64,000 bases of DNA from an uncultured Acidobacteriota bacterium (GTDB lineage: Bacteria > Acidobacteriota > UBA6911): contig CAWIVH010000001.1 in the NCBI GenBank assembly GCA_963839475.1, forward strand, positions 844,627-908,626, in the 5' to 3' direction. Of the stretch, positions 18,211 to 24,405 are shown piece by piece; the stretch's first letter is position 1, and each line of letters begins with the position of its first letter. The notes beneath the pieces are model-generated. The model did not search any database, was not told where the DNA came from, and worked only from the letters and a program-made list of their open reading frames with translations. A program made the position numbers and the translations under genes.

Positions 18211-19725
18211 TCAGAGCATCAAGCGGTCGATTTTCGAAACCAGTTCCTGGCCTTCCAGAGCGATTTGGGCGGCCTCGTTGCGGCAGGCATTGGCAAAACC
18301 GTCATCTTTCAAGCCGGGGAGGTTGATCAGCACATTGTACTGAGCGCCTTTGATCGCGGCGAATGCAAGCTGGCCGCCCACGGCAGCATCGCTGCGCGCA
18401 TTCGGGTTCCCGATCCCGGCCAGGATCTCGACGCAGCCCAGGACGGCGCGCGCGGCGCGCATGGTTTTCAACGGAACTTCGGTGGCGAAACGCGTGGCCG
18501 ATTGAATGGCCGCGCTTCGCGCCGCTTTTTCTGCCTCGCTTTCCTTGGGCAACTTGAAAGCCGCCATCACCCTGCTGTAAGCGGATGCGTCCTCCTGAAC
18601 CAGCTGCTGCAACTCGGCGCGCAACCCGCTCAGGTGACGATGCAATTCGTGGACCTGGGCCTCGACCCCTTCGAATTTCTTTTTCCCCTCGGTCAGGCCA
18701 GCCACCATCTCCCCCAAAGCTGCCGCCAGCCCGGCCGACAGCGCTGCCACGCTGCCGCCTCCAGGCACGGGCTCCGCGGAGGCAACGCTGGAGACAAACT
18801 CATCCAGCCTTTGCCCCTTGCCGAGTGCTGCGGCAAGCCGGTTCTCCAGTATCTGGCTCTCGGAAAAATGCTCCAGGCGCAGGTAGTATTCGGCCCCGGC
18901 ATTGAGCGCCTTCTGGGGAACGAGTCCGACAATTTCGCTCGAGGTCGCTGAGACTCCGAAGCGCGCTGCTTCCCGCACCACCATCTCGAACGCCCGGTGA
19001 ATCGGGGTCCCCTCGAAATGGGTGAGGTTCATGGAAACCTGGACCTGGTTCCGCTCCTTGATTTCGAATCCCAGCGCTTTTACGTAGCGCAGCCCACCGC
19101 TGGAATAGCGAACTGCTTTGGCGGCGGCCTGGGCTACTTTCAGATCGGAGGTGTCGAGATAAACATTGTAGGCGACCAGCGGAAAGCGGGCGCCCACCGC
19201 CGTTGCGCCGGCCGACGGATGGACCTCGCAGGGGCCGTAATCCGGCTTCCTGGCAGGATCCTGCCGGATGGCCTCGCGAATCCCTTCGAATTCCCCTTTG
19301 CGCACGTAGGCCAAATCGCGCCTGGCCTCCACTCGCGCGGATTGTTCGTAAAGATACACGGGAATCCGGTGGCGGACAGAAATCTCCTCCGCGACGCGGA
19401 CAGAGAGTTGAATGCATTCCTCCATCGTGATCCCCGAAATGGGGATGAATGGAATCACGTCAACGGCCCCCATCCGCGGGTGTTCGCCCTTGTGGTCTCG
19501 CAGGTCTATCAACTCTACGGCCTTGGCCACACCGGCAATCACCCCGGATGACACCGCTTCCGGTTCGCCGGCAATCGTGATCACGCAACGGTTGTGGGCG
19601 GCATCCATTTCCGAATCGAGAAGAGCCGCGCCAGGCACTCCGGTTAATGCGGCAGCAATGGCCTCCACCACTTCCTTTCTTCGGCCCTCGGAAAAATTGG
19701 GGACGCACTCGACAATCCTGTTCAC
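18211..19725 (-). CDS. ftcD: Bifunctional glutamate formimidoyltransferase / formimidoyl-THF cyclodeaminase
   Basis: The N-terminus VNRIVECVPNFSEGRRKEVVE is a formiminotransferase signature, and the C-terminal ~200 aa are cyclodeaminase-like and helical. The likely GTG start at 19725 has GGAG 5 nt upstream. It overlaps the hutI stop (GTGA). Confidence 0.75.
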   Translation of the reverse strand: MNRIVECVPNFSEGRRKEVVEAIAAALTGVPGAALLDSEMDAAHNRCVITIAGEPEAVSSGVIAGVAKAVELIDLRDHKGEHPRMGAVDVIPFIPISGITMEECIQLSVRVAEEISVRHRIPVYLYEQSARVEARRDLAYVRKGEFEGIREAIRQDPARKPDYGPCEVHPSAGATAVGARFPLVAYNVYLDTSDLKVAQAAAKAVRYSSGGLRYVKALGFEIKERNQVQVSMNLTHFEGTPIHRAFEMVVREAARFGVSATSSEIVGLVPQKALNAGAEYYLRLEHFSESQILENRLAAALGKGQRLDEFVSSVASAEPVPGGGSVAALSAGLAAALGEMVAGLTEGKKKFEGVEAQVHELHRHLSGLRAELQQLVQEDASAYSRVMAAFKLPKESEAEKAARSAAIQSATRFATEVPLKTMRAARAVLGCVEILAGIGNPNARSDAAVGGQLAFAAIKGAQYNVLINLPGLKDDGFANACRNEAAQIALEGQELVSKIDRLML

Positions 19726-20987
19726 GCGTTCTCCAGTCTGTTGATCACCACCTGCCCTTTTTTGATGGTGACAACGCAATGATTGATCCCGAAGAAATAG
19801 GGGAGCTCGCGATAATCCCCGACATCCATCAAGACGATATCGGCCTGTTTCCCGGCTTCGATGCTGCCCAGGCGGTCGGCCGCACGGAGAGAATGGGCTG
19901 CGTTCAGGGTTGCCGCGGTGATCGCTTCAGCCGGAGTCATCCGCATCTGGCTGCAGGCTATCGCAAGGACGAGCTGCATATTGAGGCAAAAGCACGATCC
20001 GGGGTTGAAGTCGGTGGCCAGGGCAACGGGAACACCGGCGCTAATCAGTTTTCGGGCAGGCGGATATCGGGTGAGCCCCAGGTTGAAAGCCGTCCCCGGC
20101 AAGAGCGTTGCCACGGTGCCGGATTTCTTCAGGAGTTCGATGCCTTCGTCGTCCAGCCACTCCAGATGGTCCGCGCTGCACGCGCCGAGTTCCGCCGCCA
20201 ATCGAGCTCCACCGCTCGGGGCCAGCTCTTCGGCATGAATCCTGAGCCCCAATCCATGTTTCCGGGCAGCCAGAAGAATGTCTCTCGCCTCCTCAACCGT
20301 GAAGTATCCTTCATCGCAGAAAACGTCGCAGAATTGGGCCAACCCTTCCGCTGCCACTTGCGGAATGAGCTTTTCCACCAGGATGCGGACATACTCCTCA
20401 CGCCGGTCCCGGAATTCATCGGGAATATCGTGGGCGCCCAAGAAGGTTGGGAACACCTCCAGGCGACTGCGACTGCGAACCTGGGAGAGAGCTTTCAGAC
20501 TTTTCAATTCGTCTTCCACGCTCAATCCATAGCCGCTTTTGGCCTCGATGGTCGTGGTTCCGTGGGCAAGGAACTGGTAGAAAAATCGCTCCGCCCCTTC
20601 CACAAGCTGGCTCTGGGCCGCGGCGCGAAGCTGCCGGACGCTGGCGCGGATGCCGCCTCCCGCTGCGGCGATCTCCTGGTAGGTACGCCCGTGGGCCCGC
20701 ATGTCGTACTCGCTCGCCCGGGTGCCCGCGAAGATCGGGTGAGTGTGACAGTCCACAAATCCGGGAAGGGCCGTCAAATTCAGACCAAGGCAGTCTATGG
20801 TTTCGCAGTCGGTGTTCAGATCCCGGTGGGAAAGCTCGCGGGTCGGACCAACCCAATCAATGTGCTCGGCGCGGACGGCAATGGCGCCGTTTTCGATGAT
20901 TTCCAGATCGGCCATTTCTTGGCCGCAGCGCGGCGCGGGTTTGCCCCGGAGGGTCACAACCTGGGCAATATTCTTCAGAACCAGCAT
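19722..20987 (-). CDS. hutI: Imidazolonepropionase
   Basis: It is an amidohydrolase with GFVDCHTHPIFAG...RIHAEELAPSGGARLAAELGACSADHL, which is the typical HutI metal-binding pattern. Confidence 0.85.
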   Translation of the reverse strand: MLVLKNIAQVVTLRGKPAPRCGQEMADLEIIENGAIAVRAEHIDWVGPTRELSHRDLNTDCETIDCLGLNLTALPGFVDCHTHPIFAGTRASEYDMRAHGRTYQEIAAAGGGIRASVRQLRAAAQSQLVEGAERFFYQFLAHGTTTIEAKSGYGLSVEDELKSLKALSQVRSRSRLEVFPTFLGAHDIPDEFRDRREEYVRILVEKLIPQVAAEGLAQFCDVFCDEGYFTVEEARDILLAARKHGLGLRIHAEELAPSGGARLAAELGACSADHLEWLDDEGIELLKKSGTVATLLPGTAFNLGLTRYPPARKLISAGVPVALATDFNPGSCFCLNMQLVLAIACSQMRMTPAEAITAATLNAAHSLRAADRLGSIEAGKQADIVLMDVGDYRELPYFFGINHCVVTIKKGQVVINRLENA

Positions 20988-21000
20988 GCAGCTCCTTGTC

Positions 21001-22149
21001 CTATTCCAACCTTCTCAGGGCGAGAATCGTGACGTCGTCAGTCACCTCGCCGCTGACAGTATAATCGGCAATCCTCTGGTAAAGGCTGCGAACAAATTGC
21101 GCCGTACTTTCATGGCAATGATGCCGGATCGCCTCGGCAAACCGGCGCTGGTCGAATATCTCGTCATCAGGTCCGACGGCATCGGTTGAACCATCGCTGG
21201 CCAGGATCAAGGTGTCGCCTTTCTCCATCTGGATGGCAACCTGATCATAGCAGGACTCCTCGAGCAGACCGAGGGGAACGCCGGATACTGAAATTTGGCT
21301 GACTTCGCCGCCGCGGATCAAAGTCGGATAGGGCATGCCGCCGTTGGAGTACCACCCCGCCCCGGTTTCAAGATGGATGCGGAGATAAGCCACGGCAATA
21401 TAATTCTGAACCTGGTATCGGCCGAGCAGGTTCCGGTTCAACAGTCCGAGAGTTTCGGCCGGCGACATCGAATTTCCGAACAGGGAGCGGATCTGGCCGC
21501 TGAAAACGGCGCCGTAAAGAGCCGCGGGTATAGATTTTCCTGATACATCTCCTATGATCACCGACAATTCGCGGGTCGCCGGATCGTAGTCAAAATCATA
21601 AAGGTCGCCGCCCACTTCGCGCGCCGGGTGATAGGCAACGGCCAGCTCGAAGCCGTCCAGGTTCGGGCATGTGGGAGGCAGGATGTATCGCTGGATGTCC
21701 CGGGCGATCTCCAGTTCACGCGCCAATCTCTCCCGCCGGATCAACTCCTTCCGGAAACGGGCGTTTTCCAGCGTCAGGCGGCGGCTTTCCAGGCCGCGCT
21801 CCACCGTCATCAGGAGATCCGGCGGATCCCAGGGCTTAACGATATACCGGAACACCTTGCAGCTGTTGATCGCCTCCACCAGGACGTCCACATCCGTATA
21901 TCCGGTCAGAATGACACGGATGGCATCCGGCATCACGTCGATCGTGTGCCTCAGGAATTCTATGCCCGTCATATCCGGCATCCGCTGGTCGGCAATGATG
22001 CATGCAATATCCTCGTTCGCTTTCACCAGCTGGAGCGCCTCATGACCGCTGCTGGCCGCGAGGACCGGATAGCGGTTCACGAAGGTGCGGCGAAGCTTCT
22101 GCAGGTTGGCGATCTCGTCGTCAACAACGAGGATTTTGTCTGCTTCCAT
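21001..22149 (-). CDS. Response regulator with PP2C-type Ser/Thr phosphatase output (RsbU-like)
   Basis: The REC domain is ILVVDDEIANL...IIADQRMPDMTGIEFL. The C-terminal PPM/SpoIIE-like domain includes GDVSGKSIPAAL...ILASDGSTDAVGPDDEIF. Confidence 0.8.
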   Translation of the reverse strand: MEADKILVVDDEIANLQKLRRTFVNRYPVLAASSGHEALQLVKANEDIACIIADQRMPDMTGIEFLRHTIDVMPDAIRVILTGYTDVDVLVEAINSCKVFRYIVKPWDPPDLLMTVERGLESRRLTLENARFRKELIRRERLARELEIARDIQRYILPPTCPNLDGFELAVAYHPAREVGGDLYDFDYDPATRELSVIIGDVSGKSIPAALYGAVFSGQIRSLFGNSMSPAETLGLLNRNLLGRYQVQNYIAVAYLRIHLETGAGWYSNGGMPYPTLIRGGEVSQISVSGVPLGLLEESCYDQVAIQMEKGDTLILASDGSTDAVGPDDEIFDQRRFAEAIRHHCHESTAQFVRSLYQRIADYTVSGEVTDDVTILALRRLE

Positions 22150-22210: not shown

Positions 22211-23440
22211 TCAGAAAAGAGCCAGGGCGGCGTAGGTGACTGCGGCTCCGGACTCGAAATCGGTCCACTGCCGGTATTGCAAAAGTTCACCCCGGCATGT
22301 CCGCAAGGTGCGCATAGCCATATAAATCGGGGGGAATCCGCAGATGCGGCGGCTGTCGCCGTCGGCGGCAATGACTCGGAAGAGACCTTCCGCATCCCCG
22401 CCCGTAATCAAGTTCAGGAACTCCAGGTCTTCGCGTTCGACCCTCTTCATCGAAACTTCCGATGGACCCGATGCATCCCCGAACCGGCGGCCTACATGGG
22501 CAAGATCCGCACCGGCCAGGACGAACGTTTTCCCGCCGCTTTCCCCGATCGAATCGTGGACAGCCCGGATGAAAGCCTCGATTTCTTCGTTCTCCGCCCC
22601 GGTCTTCCCATTCTCACAGATGTCGTGGAATGAACCCACGAGGATGGGAACGATTTTGAAGTCCTGCGGCTCTGCAAGCACATATTTCAGCATGACCGCC
22701 TGGAACTCGAGCGAATGCTCGCCGCGATGCGAGATTTCGTCGAGGAAATAGTCTCCCGGAAGTTTCGCGGCCAGCCGATCCACAAATTCGGCATCGACTG
22801 CGGCAACGCCCAAAGGTGTTTCGAAATCTTTCCGGGTCAGCGCAAACCGCTGCCGCATGGGGGTATGGCAGGTTCCGAACAGGATAAAGCGGTCCGCGCC
22901 GGCCGCCTGGCCGAGGGTCTTGTAGGCCTGGGCATAGGTAGGCCCGCCGCGGCGAAAGTCGATGTGGGGAGCGATCAGCCCCCTGAGGTCTTTCCGCCCG
23001 TCATTGCCCGGGGCTGAACCCGGGCCGTCAGGATGATCGAAAAAACCGTTGATCTGGCTGCGCAGCTCATCGGGGTCCAGTGCATAGGCTGATCCTGCGT
23101 GGTGAGCCGGGCGGACTGCCGAGGAGAGAAACTCCGCATCCTGCTTTTGCCGCAGGCTGCGGTACCTTTCACTATCCAGAAAACCCATTTCGTCGAGCTG
23201 TTCAACCAGGCCTTCAAGCTGCTCCGAGGGAATGATCTCCCCGGAGGCTCGGAAAAAGTCGGCCTGGATGTCACGCAGGGTATTCGCCCCATCCATGCGT
23301 GAGACCAGGAATACGCCGGTCTGATTGAGAAAAACGGGCTGGCCGGCAAATCCCTCCGGGTCGCGAAGACAAATCAGCTGCTCGCCTTCGCCCTGGACCG
23401 GAAAGGCCTCCACAGCACGCAGTTTGGGGCAATCTGTCAT
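22211..23440 (-). CDS. MEMO1-family protein with N-terminal PqqD-like (RRE-type) domain
   Basis: From about aa 110 it aligns with MEMO1 landmarks (PAHHAGSAYA; IAPHIDFRRGGPTYAQAYK; DEISHRGEHSLEF; CGFPPIYMAM; AAVTYAALAL). The N-terminal ~100 aa (ICLRDPEG..FLNQTGVFLVSRMDGANTLRDIQADF..IIPSEQLEGLVEQLDEMGFL) fit the PqqD winged-helix pattern. Its ATG overlaps the upstream stop (ATGA). Confidence 0.7.
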   Translation of the reverse strand: MTDCPKLRAVEAFPVQGEGEQLICLRDPEGFAGQPVFLNQTGVFLVSRMDGANTLRDIQADFFRASGEIIPSEQLEGLVEQLDEMGFLDSERYRSLRQKQDAEFLSSAVRPAHHAGSAYALDPDELRSQINGFFDHPDGPGSAPGNDGRKDLRGLIAPHIDFRRGGPTYAQAYKTLGQAAGADRFILFGTCHTPMRQRFALTRKDFETPLGVAAVDAEFVDRLAAKLPGDYFLDEISHRGEHSLEFQAVMLKYVLAEPQDFKIVPILVGSFHDICENGKTGAENEEIEAFIRAVHDSIGESGGKTFVLAGADLAHVGRRFGDASGPSEVSMKRVEREDLEFLNLITGGDAEGLFRVIAADGDSRRICGFPPIYMAMRTLRTCRGELLQYRQWTDFESGAAVTYAALALF

Positions 23441-24405
23441 GGGTTTGAAGATCCGCCCCGAAGCTCGCGGGCGATTTCCTTGGCGATTTCACGCGTCCGC
23501 GGAAGATCCTGTGGCTGAAAGGAAATGGCTCCTACCACCGGGTGCCCTCCGCCGCCGTATCTTTCGCAGACAGCAGCCAGGTTGATCGTGCGGGGAATCA
23601 CGCTCCAGGGATTCGAACCCACCGAGATCTTGGACCGGAAACTCGAGCGGCTTACGCCGACGCAGTAATTGGCTTGGGGAAAAAGATAGTAAGGCACGAA
23701 CTTGTTGTAGCCCTCCATCTCGTAGTCGCTGATATCGAAATAAACGGTCCCGTCGGCGTAATGGGAGTGTTTGCGGATAATCTCGATGGAATTAAGATGC
23801 CTCTCATACAGGGGAAGGAAAACCTTCTGCACCCAATCCTCTGCCATGATTTCCGCGAGGCTTTTTTCCTGGAATTCCTTGATGAAACGGCGGCTCAGCG
23901 CCCGATCTCGAATCCCTTCGATTGCCATCATGAGCTGCATGGCCGGTTCGCGCACTTCCACCGCCGATTTTGCGTCGTCGAACAAAGCCCCATCGATCAC
24001 ATCAGCCCAGTGGAACAGCTCGCTCAATCGGCTGGGATCGTAATTGAAATGCTTCCGCACCATCGCGACAATGAAATTGGTGCAGGACCGGAAGGTGGGA
24101 TCGTGGAACTTTTTGCCGCTGCTGTCGGCGCGGAAGTGGGCTTCATCTTCCCGGCTCAAAAATGCGCTCTGGTGATGGTCAAACCACCAGGTGAGCCGCG
24201 AATCGCTGGAGTATTTGAAATCTACGATGGCATTCGCATCGCCGTCAAACTGAACATCCAGGAAAAGCTCCCCCGCGCGGTGAGCCAGACCTTCGTAGTC
24301 GAATTCGGCCGCGGCATCGATCGCGTTGCGATAAAAATCGGTGAAAGTCGCGGCGGACGCCAGCCCGTCGAAGCAATTGTCATGAAAATATACTTTCACC
24401 CTCAT
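23437..24405 (-). CDS. DHH/DHHA1-family phosphoesterase
   Basis: It has the N-terminal YFHDNCFDGLASA (DHH motif I/II-like), WFDHHQS (the DHH motif) and the C-terminal GGGH motif (RYGGGGHPVVGAI) typical of DHHA1. Confidence 0.65.
   Translation of the reverse strand: MRVKVYFHDNCFDGLASAATFTDFYRNAIDAAAEFDYEGLAHRAGELFLDVQFDGDANAIVDFKYSSDSRLTWWFDHHQSAFLSREDEAHFRADSSGKKFHDPTFRSCTNFIVAMVRKHFNYDPSRLSELFHWADVIDGALFDDAKSAVEVREPAMQLMMAIEGIRDRALSRRFIKEFQEKSLAEIMAEDWVQKVFLPLYERHLNSIEIIRKHSHYADGTVYFDISDYEMEGYNKFVPYYLFPQANYCVGVSRSSFRSKISVGSNPWSVIPRTINLAAVCERYGGGGHPVVGAISFQPQDLPRTREIAKEIARELRGGSSNP

Follow-up and report, generated by a model that had tools for sequence, protein, structure and literature searches.

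A MEMO-family protein fused to a predicted RiPP recognition element, and its neighbouring divergent DHH/DHHA1-type phosphoesterase, in an uncultured Acidobacteriota bacterium

In a 64,000-nucleotide stretch of the genome of an uncultured Acidobacteriota bacterium (lineage UBA6911; GenBank assembly GCA_963839475.1, contig CAWIVH010000001.1, positions 844,627–908,626; hereafter the window), two consecutive minus-strand genes encode a DHH-like protein (322 aa; 23437–24405) and a MEMO-family protein with an N-terminal extension (409 aa; 22211–23440). We find that this extension is predicted to adopt the fold of a recognition element (RRE) of RiPPs (peptides made on the ribosome and modified after translation), that the RRE-MEMO fusion recurs across many bacterial phyla, and that no gene, the DHH-like one included, accompanies it throughout. 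On balance, the two proteins are probably unrelated enzymes that are co-transcribed by chance of gene order in one small Acidobacteriota lineage, with RRE-MEMO being a peptide-docking metalloenzyme. The fusion is a further case of an already catalogued, functionally uncharacterised family, and its DHH-like neighbour belongs, as a divergent member, to a superfamily that is already known. An initial reading of the window (the original prediction) had instead put the two genes forward as a possible system of a kind not previously described.

The extension lies outside what is common to MEMO proteins. The Pfam Memo match starts at residue 112 and that of TIGR04336 at residue 110, which leaves ~109 aa in front of the canonical ~270-position MEMO models; because these hidden Markov models (HMMs) cover the protein from residue ~110 onward, the extension does not belong to the generic make-up of MEMO proteins, in line with the original prediction. 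An AlphaFold2 (AF2) model of residues 1–108 (mean predicted local distance difference test score, pLDDT, 92.3; predicted template modelling score, pTM, 0.80) shows three strands (β1 11–17, β2 20–26, β3 36–38) followed by three helices (α1 40–47, α2 55–66, α3 72–84), and this βββ-ααα order is the one by which RREs are recognised in PMC12710340. The same elements recur in the model of the full-length protein, and a linker helix (91–106) follows α3 in both models. The RRE/PqqD-fold domain, as delimited from the model secondary structure, thus covers residues 1–90 (23171–23440), and the linker residues 91–109 (23114–23170). Experimentally solved RREs resembled the model closely, with structural-match scores of 9.6 for TfuB1, 9.0 for TbiB1, 8.9 for TigE, 7.4 and 6.7 for PqqD, 6.9 each for PbtF and LynD, 6.8 for ThcOx and 5.7–6.6 for MibB, NisB, MccB, TbtB and TglI. 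Ordinary winged-helix regulators scored at most 5.7, and three non-RiPP protein-modifying enzymes also scored well (PKMT2 8.7, Rv2067c 7.1, MINA53 6.7). Judging from these models, an RRE/PqqD fold for the extension is well supported.

Sequence profiles gave a fainter signal of the same kind. The PqqD profile PF05402, at 15.2 bits, fell short of its 23.4-bit cut-off (E = 0.027, residues 28–62), and NCBIfam yielded TIGR04248 (E = 0.011) and TIGR03859 (E = 0.15) below threshold; ScmD (E = 0.011) and ApyI (E = 0.16) were among the weak matches. When a profile of 26 N-domains was compared with the sequences in the PDB, the top match was residues 47–95 of PaaA (E = 0.41), which we take to be the N-terminal RRE region of that protein. 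All of these sub-threshold sequence matches were to RRE families. The proposal of a PqqD/RRE-like extension therefore stands as regards the predicted fold and its likeness to solved RREs, but not as a PqqD match by profile. Among 82 representatives that are at most 50% identical to each other, the RRE core (residues 5–90) had a mean pairwise identity of 39.0%, compared with 37.2% for the MEMO domain and 26% for the linker helix, the least conserved segment; the motifs PKLRPVEAFPV, LRDP, FDGxHSxxDIQA and LDExxxLD stand out within the RRE as strongly conserved.

The remainder of the protein (residues 110–409 plus the stop codon; 22211–23113) is a MEMO domain of the LigB superfamily. Its assignment to the MEMO1 family in the original prediction was borne out by Pfam Memo (PF01875; residues 112–406, E = 5e-48, 164 bits against a cut-off of 27) and TIGR04336 (residues 110–407, 119.8 bits against 26). 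A profile built from 82 diverse fusions aligned along the entire human MEMO1 (PDB 7kq8; E = 1.8e-29) and placed H159, H192, C367, D312 and H315 of the window protein opposite H49, H81, C244, D189 and H192 of MEMO1, respectively. The first three of these MEMO1 residues are its Fe/Cu ligands (PMC11081632). In the 82 fusions H159 and H192 were invariant and C367 was conserved in at least 90%, and all five mapped site residues were either invariant or at least 90% conserved. The full-length AF2 model (pLDDT 89, pTM 0.86) found MEMO1 as its best Foldseek match (template modelling score, TM, 0.79), followed by LigB-type extradiol dioxygenases. Because the MEMO1 ligand positions are kept and the profile and fold matches agree, the metal centre appears to be intact, and the domain keeps the residues of the His/His/Cys metal site.

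The fusion is widespread. Scanning one genome per species with an alignment of diverse fusions recovered at least 596 genomes that encode relatives, and the neighbourhood survey described below, of 83 RRE-MEMO loci in total, draws on the best 80 of these; the loci are phylogenetically non-independent. The N-domain is carried by 1,361 clusters at 50% identity; in the top 150 of these clusters, every MEMO-matching protein that reached 380 aa (82 in number) was a fusion of ~400–440 aa. The best 80 loci span more than 12 phyla, and in every one the N-domain is fused to MEMO: Acidobacteriota, Methylomirabilota/Rokubacteria, Nitrospinota, Thermodesulfobacteriota and other "Deltaproteobacteria", Verrucomicrobiota, Planctomycetota, Gemmatimonadota, Latescibacterota, Spirochaetes, Ignavibacteriales, Sumerlaeota, Dadabacteria, Poribacteria, Abyssobacteria and Binatia are represented. 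Stand-alone copies were absent from the genome loci. In a separate observation, a representative of 986 aa (P0254) was seen in which the N-domain and the initial ~30 residues of the MEMO region (LRLASHAGLSYP) precede ~850 unrelated residues; this protein gives no match to the MEMO-domain HMM and represents either a distinct architecture or a gene call that is chimeric or frameshifted.

The 322-aa protein is, on the evidence of its sequence, a divergent stand-alone DHH/DHHA1 phosphodiesterase of the PggH/NrnA type. Its label as a DHH/DHHA1 protein in the original prediction holds in substance, through a match to PggH and through invariant DHH and GGGGH motifs, but not through the Pfam families named for it: DHH (PF01368) gave no match, DHHA1 (PF02272) reached 13 bits against a cut-off of 25.9, and NCBIfam gave no match either. 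Compared with PggH (PDB 7d62), the single sequence aligned at E = 6.4e-5 and a family profile, collinearly, at E = 1.7e-9; the alignment is significant over the C-terminal half only, with the DHH motif also aligned. D62, D76-H77-H78, D135/D138-G139, R257, K259 and G284-G-G-G-H288 were invariant in all 49 DHH-like sequences, the catalytic roles of such residues in PggH-type enzymes being taken from PMC8861645. Where the canonical motif I reads D-x-D, this family has, in a correspondence aligned by eye, an invariant C11-F12-D13 (24373–24381 in the window), and its motif II has Asp at the position of Asn55 in PggH; the Cys in motif I and the Asp in motif II may point to a different metal preference or chemistry. 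The most likely substrates would be very short 5'-phosphorylated oligoribonucleotides (pGpG, nanoRNA) or pAp, cleaved in a divalent-metal-dependent manner.

The two genes are tightly packed. As the original prediction had noted, the start codon of the 409-aa open reading frame (ORF) and the TGA stop of the 322-aa ORF share an ATGA at 23437–23440 (junction sequence AACCCATGACAGAT), which can be read directly in the sequence. An HMM of the DHH-like family, run over the 83 RRE-MEMO loci, placed the DHH-like gene next to RRE-MEMO in the window and, beyond it, in just four distinct loci of close relatives, L001, L002/L003, L004 and L006 (locus labels are ours), all of which are Acidobacteriota with MEMO proteins 56–59% identical to that of the window. 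The intervening distances were −4 nt in the window, +5 in L001, +162 in L002 (by longest-ORF call; +210 by the deposited gene calls), +5 in L004 and −4 in L006. The gene was not beside RRE-MEMO in other Acidobacteriota (L007, L041 and L071; ±10 kb), and it was absent within ±10 kb in ~75 loci from the other phyla, without exception, even with HMMER filters switched off and E-values up to 10 accepted. In the reverse direction, RRE-MEMO followed the DHH-like gene in 1 of the 66 metagenome loci with downstream room (L086).

Close relatives that lack RRE-MEMO show how the array varies. In L084 and L085, whose DHH-like proteins are 71% identical to that of the window, the order is DHH, then a REC-PP2C response-regulator phosphatase, then hutI, then the formiminotransferase-cyclodeaminase gene (FTCD), without MEMO; in L087 and L090, DHH is followed by hutI, without MEMO or REC-PP2C. 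Overall, the MEMO-less loci in which the DHH-like gene directly precedes REC-PP2C or hutI have DHH-like proteins 65–71% identical to that of the window, and homologues at 52–57% identity have none of the array's neighbours. Because MEMO-less arrays occur in such close relatives, the array is fluid and RRE-MEMO is a variably present insert. As a gene downstream of RRE-MEMO, REC-PP2C is confined to the window's clade; it makes up 4 of the 46 same-strand neighbours on that side. Contrary to the pairing originally proposed, DHH and RRE-MEMO are thus adjacent only within a narrow clade and are not conserved as neighbours beyond it.

The wider neighbourhoods reveal no universal partner either. When all ORFs lying within ±6 kb of RRE-MEMO in the 83 loci were clustered de novo, no neighbour family exceeded 27 loci, and each recurrent family was restricted to a lineage; the top two neighbour clusters proved to be antisense shadow ORFs of MEMO itself. 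Pfam profiling of the immediate same-strand neighbours showed heterogeneous partner sets. Upstream, an M20 peptidase was found in 10 loci, a Lon protease in 4–5 and Hydantoinase B in 4; downstream, an M19 dipeptidase in 5, DUF434/DUF5616 in 4, REC-PP2C in 4 (the window's clade), UPF0047 in 3, and assorted metabolic enzymes in others. The M20 cluster (C6) comprised 19 loci: 17 Rokubacteria, one Acidoferrum (L007) and one of unknown taxon. These peptidase-rich neighbourhoods occur in several independent lineages, to each of which they are bound, and hint weakly that the substrate is a peptide or protein.

A place for RRE-MEMO in peptide maturation was also considered, either as a true RiPP-maturation enzyme or as component B of an AmmeMemoRadiSam system whose genes are dispersed, with the precursor, the radical S-adenosylmethionine (SAM) enzyme and AMMECR1 encoded elsewhere in the genome. 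Such a role has points in its favour, in that the TIGR04336 score of 119.8 bits far exceeds its cut-off, AMMECR1 lies directly upstream in L062 and RRE-Finder places the family among RRE fusions. We nevertheless regard it as very unlikely. AMMECR1 was adjacent in only that one of 48 loci, radical-SAM-type CxxxCxxC ORFs occurred in 3 of 83, and neither a radical SAM CxxxCxxC motif nor an AMMECR1-type motif was present in the long ORFs of the 64-kb window. A small-ORF screen for precursor peptides detected nothing but lineage-restricted families: the window's clade yielded none, and no family was conserved among the phyla; the motif search and this screen agree with the original prediction, which had seen no radical SAM gene or precursor ORF nearby. 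A fusion kept in all loci, contexts that are of housekeeping type and vary with lineage, and a highly conserved RRE are moreover atypical of RiPP clusters. Because the neighbours are heterogeneous and radical SAM, AMMECR1 and precursor genes are not consistently near, RRE-MEMO is, within the ±10 kb examined, part of neither a RiPP-like cluster nor an AmmeMemoRadiSam cassette.

How, then, might the protein work? We envisage that the RRE would use β-strand addition to dock a peptide segment in extended form, which it would present to the His/His/Cys metal centre (Fe/Cu) for a redox-type modification. The substrate would be encoded elsewhere, and would probably be conserved across phyla, as a protein or a conserved peptide, rather than being a local hypervariable RiPP precursor. 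A conserved, unlinked ligand is favoured because the RRE is highly conserved, the fusion is obligate and the genomic context shifts; conservation equal to or above that of the catalytic domain is not what one would expect of an RRE that tracks hypervariable leader peptides. In its most specific form, namely a metalloenzyme of at least a dozen phyla that acts on a peptide or protein and whose RRE recognises one conserved, unlinked housekeeping protein or peptide, the proposal is less likely than not. The ATGA overlap would, on this account, reflect operon packing in a fluid DHH–(RRE-MEMO)–(REC-PP2C)–hutI–FTCD array rather than a partnership.

In the main rival account, the RRE fold of the N-domain does not serve peptide recognition, and the domain forms a fixed structural or regulatory module: a lid, a dimerisation element, or a site for binding a small molecule, nucleic acid or partner protein, with MEMO acting on a small molecule. 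An N-domain conserved like the catalytic domain is what a fixed interface would lead one to expect, the full-length pTM of 0.86 suggests a defined interdomain arrangement, and the lack of a precursor peptide, together with neighbours that are often small-molecule metabolic enzymes, is in keeping with it. The top structural matches, by contrast, are RREs solved with leader peptides, and the sub-threshold sequence matches are confined to RRE families. Qiu et al. in 2008 also reportedly described human MEMO1 as binding a phosphotyrosine peptide, which would likewise speak for peptides. Taken together, we judge a non-peptide N-domain to be unlikely. Far less probable still is that the DHH/DHHA1 phosphoesterase and RRE-MEMO make up a dedicated two-gene system in which, for example, the RRE binds, MEMO modifies and the phosphoesterase processes a peptide- or nucleotide-linked substrate. 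The ATGA overlap in the window and L006 and the +5-nt spacing in L001 and L004 would fit such a system, but the absence of the DHH-like gene from ~75 loci of other phyla and from L007, L041 and L071, the single reverse case among 66 and the MEMO-less loci at 65–71% identity largely refute it.

Several points nonetheless weigh against the reading that we prefer, that of two unrelated enzymes of which RRE-MEMO docks peptides. Adjacency of the two genes persists in 7 loci of the window's clade, a further 15 pairs of MEMO and DHH homologues lie on contigs that match in size, and overlaps or gaps of at most 5 nt are frequent within the clade. Because adjacency persists there, a clade-specific functional link between DHH and RRE-MEMO is possible, although adjacency inside a clade is also expected from shared ancestry of gene order. 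The neighbourhood survey draws on the best 80 of at least 596 species genomes, with crude longest-ORF gene calls and ±10 kb examined. As every PqqD/RRE profile stayed below threshold (PF05402 included), the RRE assignment derives wholly from predicted structure, and the high conservation of the N-domain could instead reflect an intramolecular interface. Finally, none of the MEMO proteins has a known enzymatic activity, and for MEMO1, in which no catalysis has been detected, the molecular function "remains unknown" (PMC11081632).

In contrast to the original prediction, which did not recognise the pairing as described, the RRE-MEMO fusion had already been catalogued: in PMC12710340 (mSystems, November 2025), "Memo-like proteins (PF01875)" are one of the high-confidence kinds of RRE fusion described as "unprecedented in RiPPs", and an HMM, RREFam044 "Memo_RRE", is supplied for them without an assigned function. 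That family has the architecture seen here, an N-terminal RRE fold followed by Memo, and there as here it was predicted structure, not PF05402, that allowed its recognition; judging from this architecture, the window protein would be a member. The catalogue treats Memo_RRE as a candidate RiPP-related fusion, whereas the neighbourhoods examined here argue against a local RiPP cluster. No other paper linking Memo with PqqD or an RRE was found in our literature search, nor any functional study of AmmeMemoRadiSam or of AMMECR1 together with MEMO1 and radical SAM.

Among characterised relatives, human MEMO1 (PDB 3bcz, 7kq8, 7l5c) shares the fold (TM 0.79) and the site residues H49, H81, C244, D189 and H192 with the window domain, but has no N-terminal RRE, is only ~21% identical to the window protein, and its own biochemical activity is unknown. 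The RREs of RiPP pathways, both discrete and fused (the lasso-peptide B1 proteins TfuB1 and TbiB1, PqqD, the RRE of the radical SAM enzyme TigE, LynD and NisB) are 8–22% identical to the N-domain; unlike them, the window RRE has no precursor or tailoring enzyme nearby and belongs to a family unusually conserved across phyla. PggH (VCA0593 of Vibrio cholerae, PDB 7d62), which is specific for pGpG, has a chain of 324 residues, compared with 322 aa here, and shares the DHH and GGGH motifs and the acidic residues of motifs II and IV; NrnA is more distant. As PggH is reported to be confined to Vibrio, the DHH-like protein would represent a separate Acidobacteriota family. With respect to AmmeMemoRadiSam (TIGR04335/04336/04337), the window MEMO scores above the TIGR04336 cut-off and PGAP names its homologues 'AmmeMemoRadiSam system protein B', but the partners AMMECR1 and radical SAM are not adjacent here and almost never in the family, and the canonical B protein has no RRE.

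Since the idea that the MEMO family acts on peptides or proteins is implicit in the 2025 RRE-Finder catalogue, the window provides an added example rather than a discovery. What the present analysis contributes is that RRE-MEMO is, in the loci surveyed, a stand-alone gene, outside both RiPP clusters and the AmmeMemoRadiSam cassette, and that its translational coupling to the DHH phosphoesterase gives no basis for inferring function. A bacterial MEMO permanently fused to a putative peptide-docking domain suggests that the MEMO family acts on peptides or proteins, and RRE-MEMO would be a simple system in which to find a MEMO substrate. Should a conserved unlinked substrate indeed exist, it would offer the first tractable biochemical handle on MEMO proteins, the human MEMO1 included; the role of MEMO would then be the metal-dependent modification of a docked peptide segment, and the lineage-specific linkage to M20, M19 and Lon peptidases would hint at peptide or protein turnover.

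The remaining genes of the array lie downstream of RRE-MEMO in the same orientation. The REC-PP2C (SpoIIE) response-regulator phosphatase (21001–22149, minus strand, 382 aa; Pfam Response_reg 6e-17, SpoIIE 9e-41) is the downstream neighbour named in the original prediction; the spacer from the MEMO stop codon to its start measures 61 nt, not the 62 bp first given. It is followed by the HutI-like amidohydrolase gene (19722–20987, minus strand; Pfam Amidohydro_1) and by FTCD (18211–19779, minus strand; Pfam FTCD_N/FTCD/FTCD_C), which form a syntenic tail of the array that is also present in L001, L002, a JGI contig, L084–L087 and L090. The DHH-like gene stays beside hutI (and FTCD) in loci that lack RRE-MEMO and/or REC-PP2C (L084:4001–6870, L085, L087:4001–6337 and L090), and in this lineage its stable syntenic partner is therefore the histidine-degradation pair rather than MEMO. 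A role of the DHH-like protein and REC-PP2C in cyclic di-GMP signalling was considered and set aside; the two are adjacent in L084/L085, and REC-PP2C is missing in L087/L090. Our ORF calls agreed with the original prediction on the three co-oriented minus-strand genes and their coordinates, and since the window proteins have very many (thousands of) full-length homologues, these ORFs are real genes and not chance ones. No tRNA or tmRNA genes and no Rfam families at the gathering threshold were found across the whole 64-kb window, and a promoter/terminator scan gave a signal at background level.

Several lineage-specific arrangements were seen around RRE-MEMO in other genomes. An M20/ArgE-type peptidase gene lies directly upstream, often with a 1–4-nt overlap (L007:8760–9986, L014:4564–5775, L017:8787–10001, L060:8757–9989); at 19 of 83 loci, in Rokubacteria/Methylomirabilota and one Acidobacteriota, this coupling is more widespread than that with DHH, and an ORF of ~113 aa without a Pfam match is found just upstream of the M20 peptidase in 24 loci. 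Elsewhere, RRE-MEMO is placed between Hydantoinase_B/oxoprolinase (520 aa) and an M19 dipeptidase (~320 aa), with gaps of −26 to +13 nt, in closely related Thermodesulfobacteriota/Dadabacteria genomes, a set that may constitute an operon for peptide or lactam metabolism; in one Ignavibacteriales genome, too, RRE-MEMO is followed by an M19 gene (L016:1343–5101, L019, L022, L033; also L021:11428–12378). A γ-glutamyl-cycle theme, combining oxoprolinase-type HyuB with M19/M20 dipeptidases, was rejected, each association being confined to one lineage. In Syntrophaceae-like genomes, a conserved ORF of ~80 aa lies on the opposite strand just downstream (L020:11322–11567(−), L039, L043, L054, L063), and a Cys-rich, zinc-ribbon-like ORF of ~75 aa lies upstream of the Lon gene that precedes RRE-MEMO (L020:6974–7213(+), L043, L054, L063); neither had a Pfam match where tested. 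A gene for a RumA/TrmA-type (uracil-5) RNA methyltransferase, together with an ORF of ~93 aa without a Pfam match, lies upstream on the same strand in 8 loci (L059:7833–9418, L073, L081, L071 and related) from Binatia, 'delta-proteobacterial' lineages and one Acidiferrales genome. Within the window itself, the longest-ORF call for FTCD, which takes the TTG at 19779 as its start, produces a 58-nt overlap with the hutI-like gene (19722–19779); because the corresponding overlap is only 4 nt in L001, the true FTCD start is probably further downstream.

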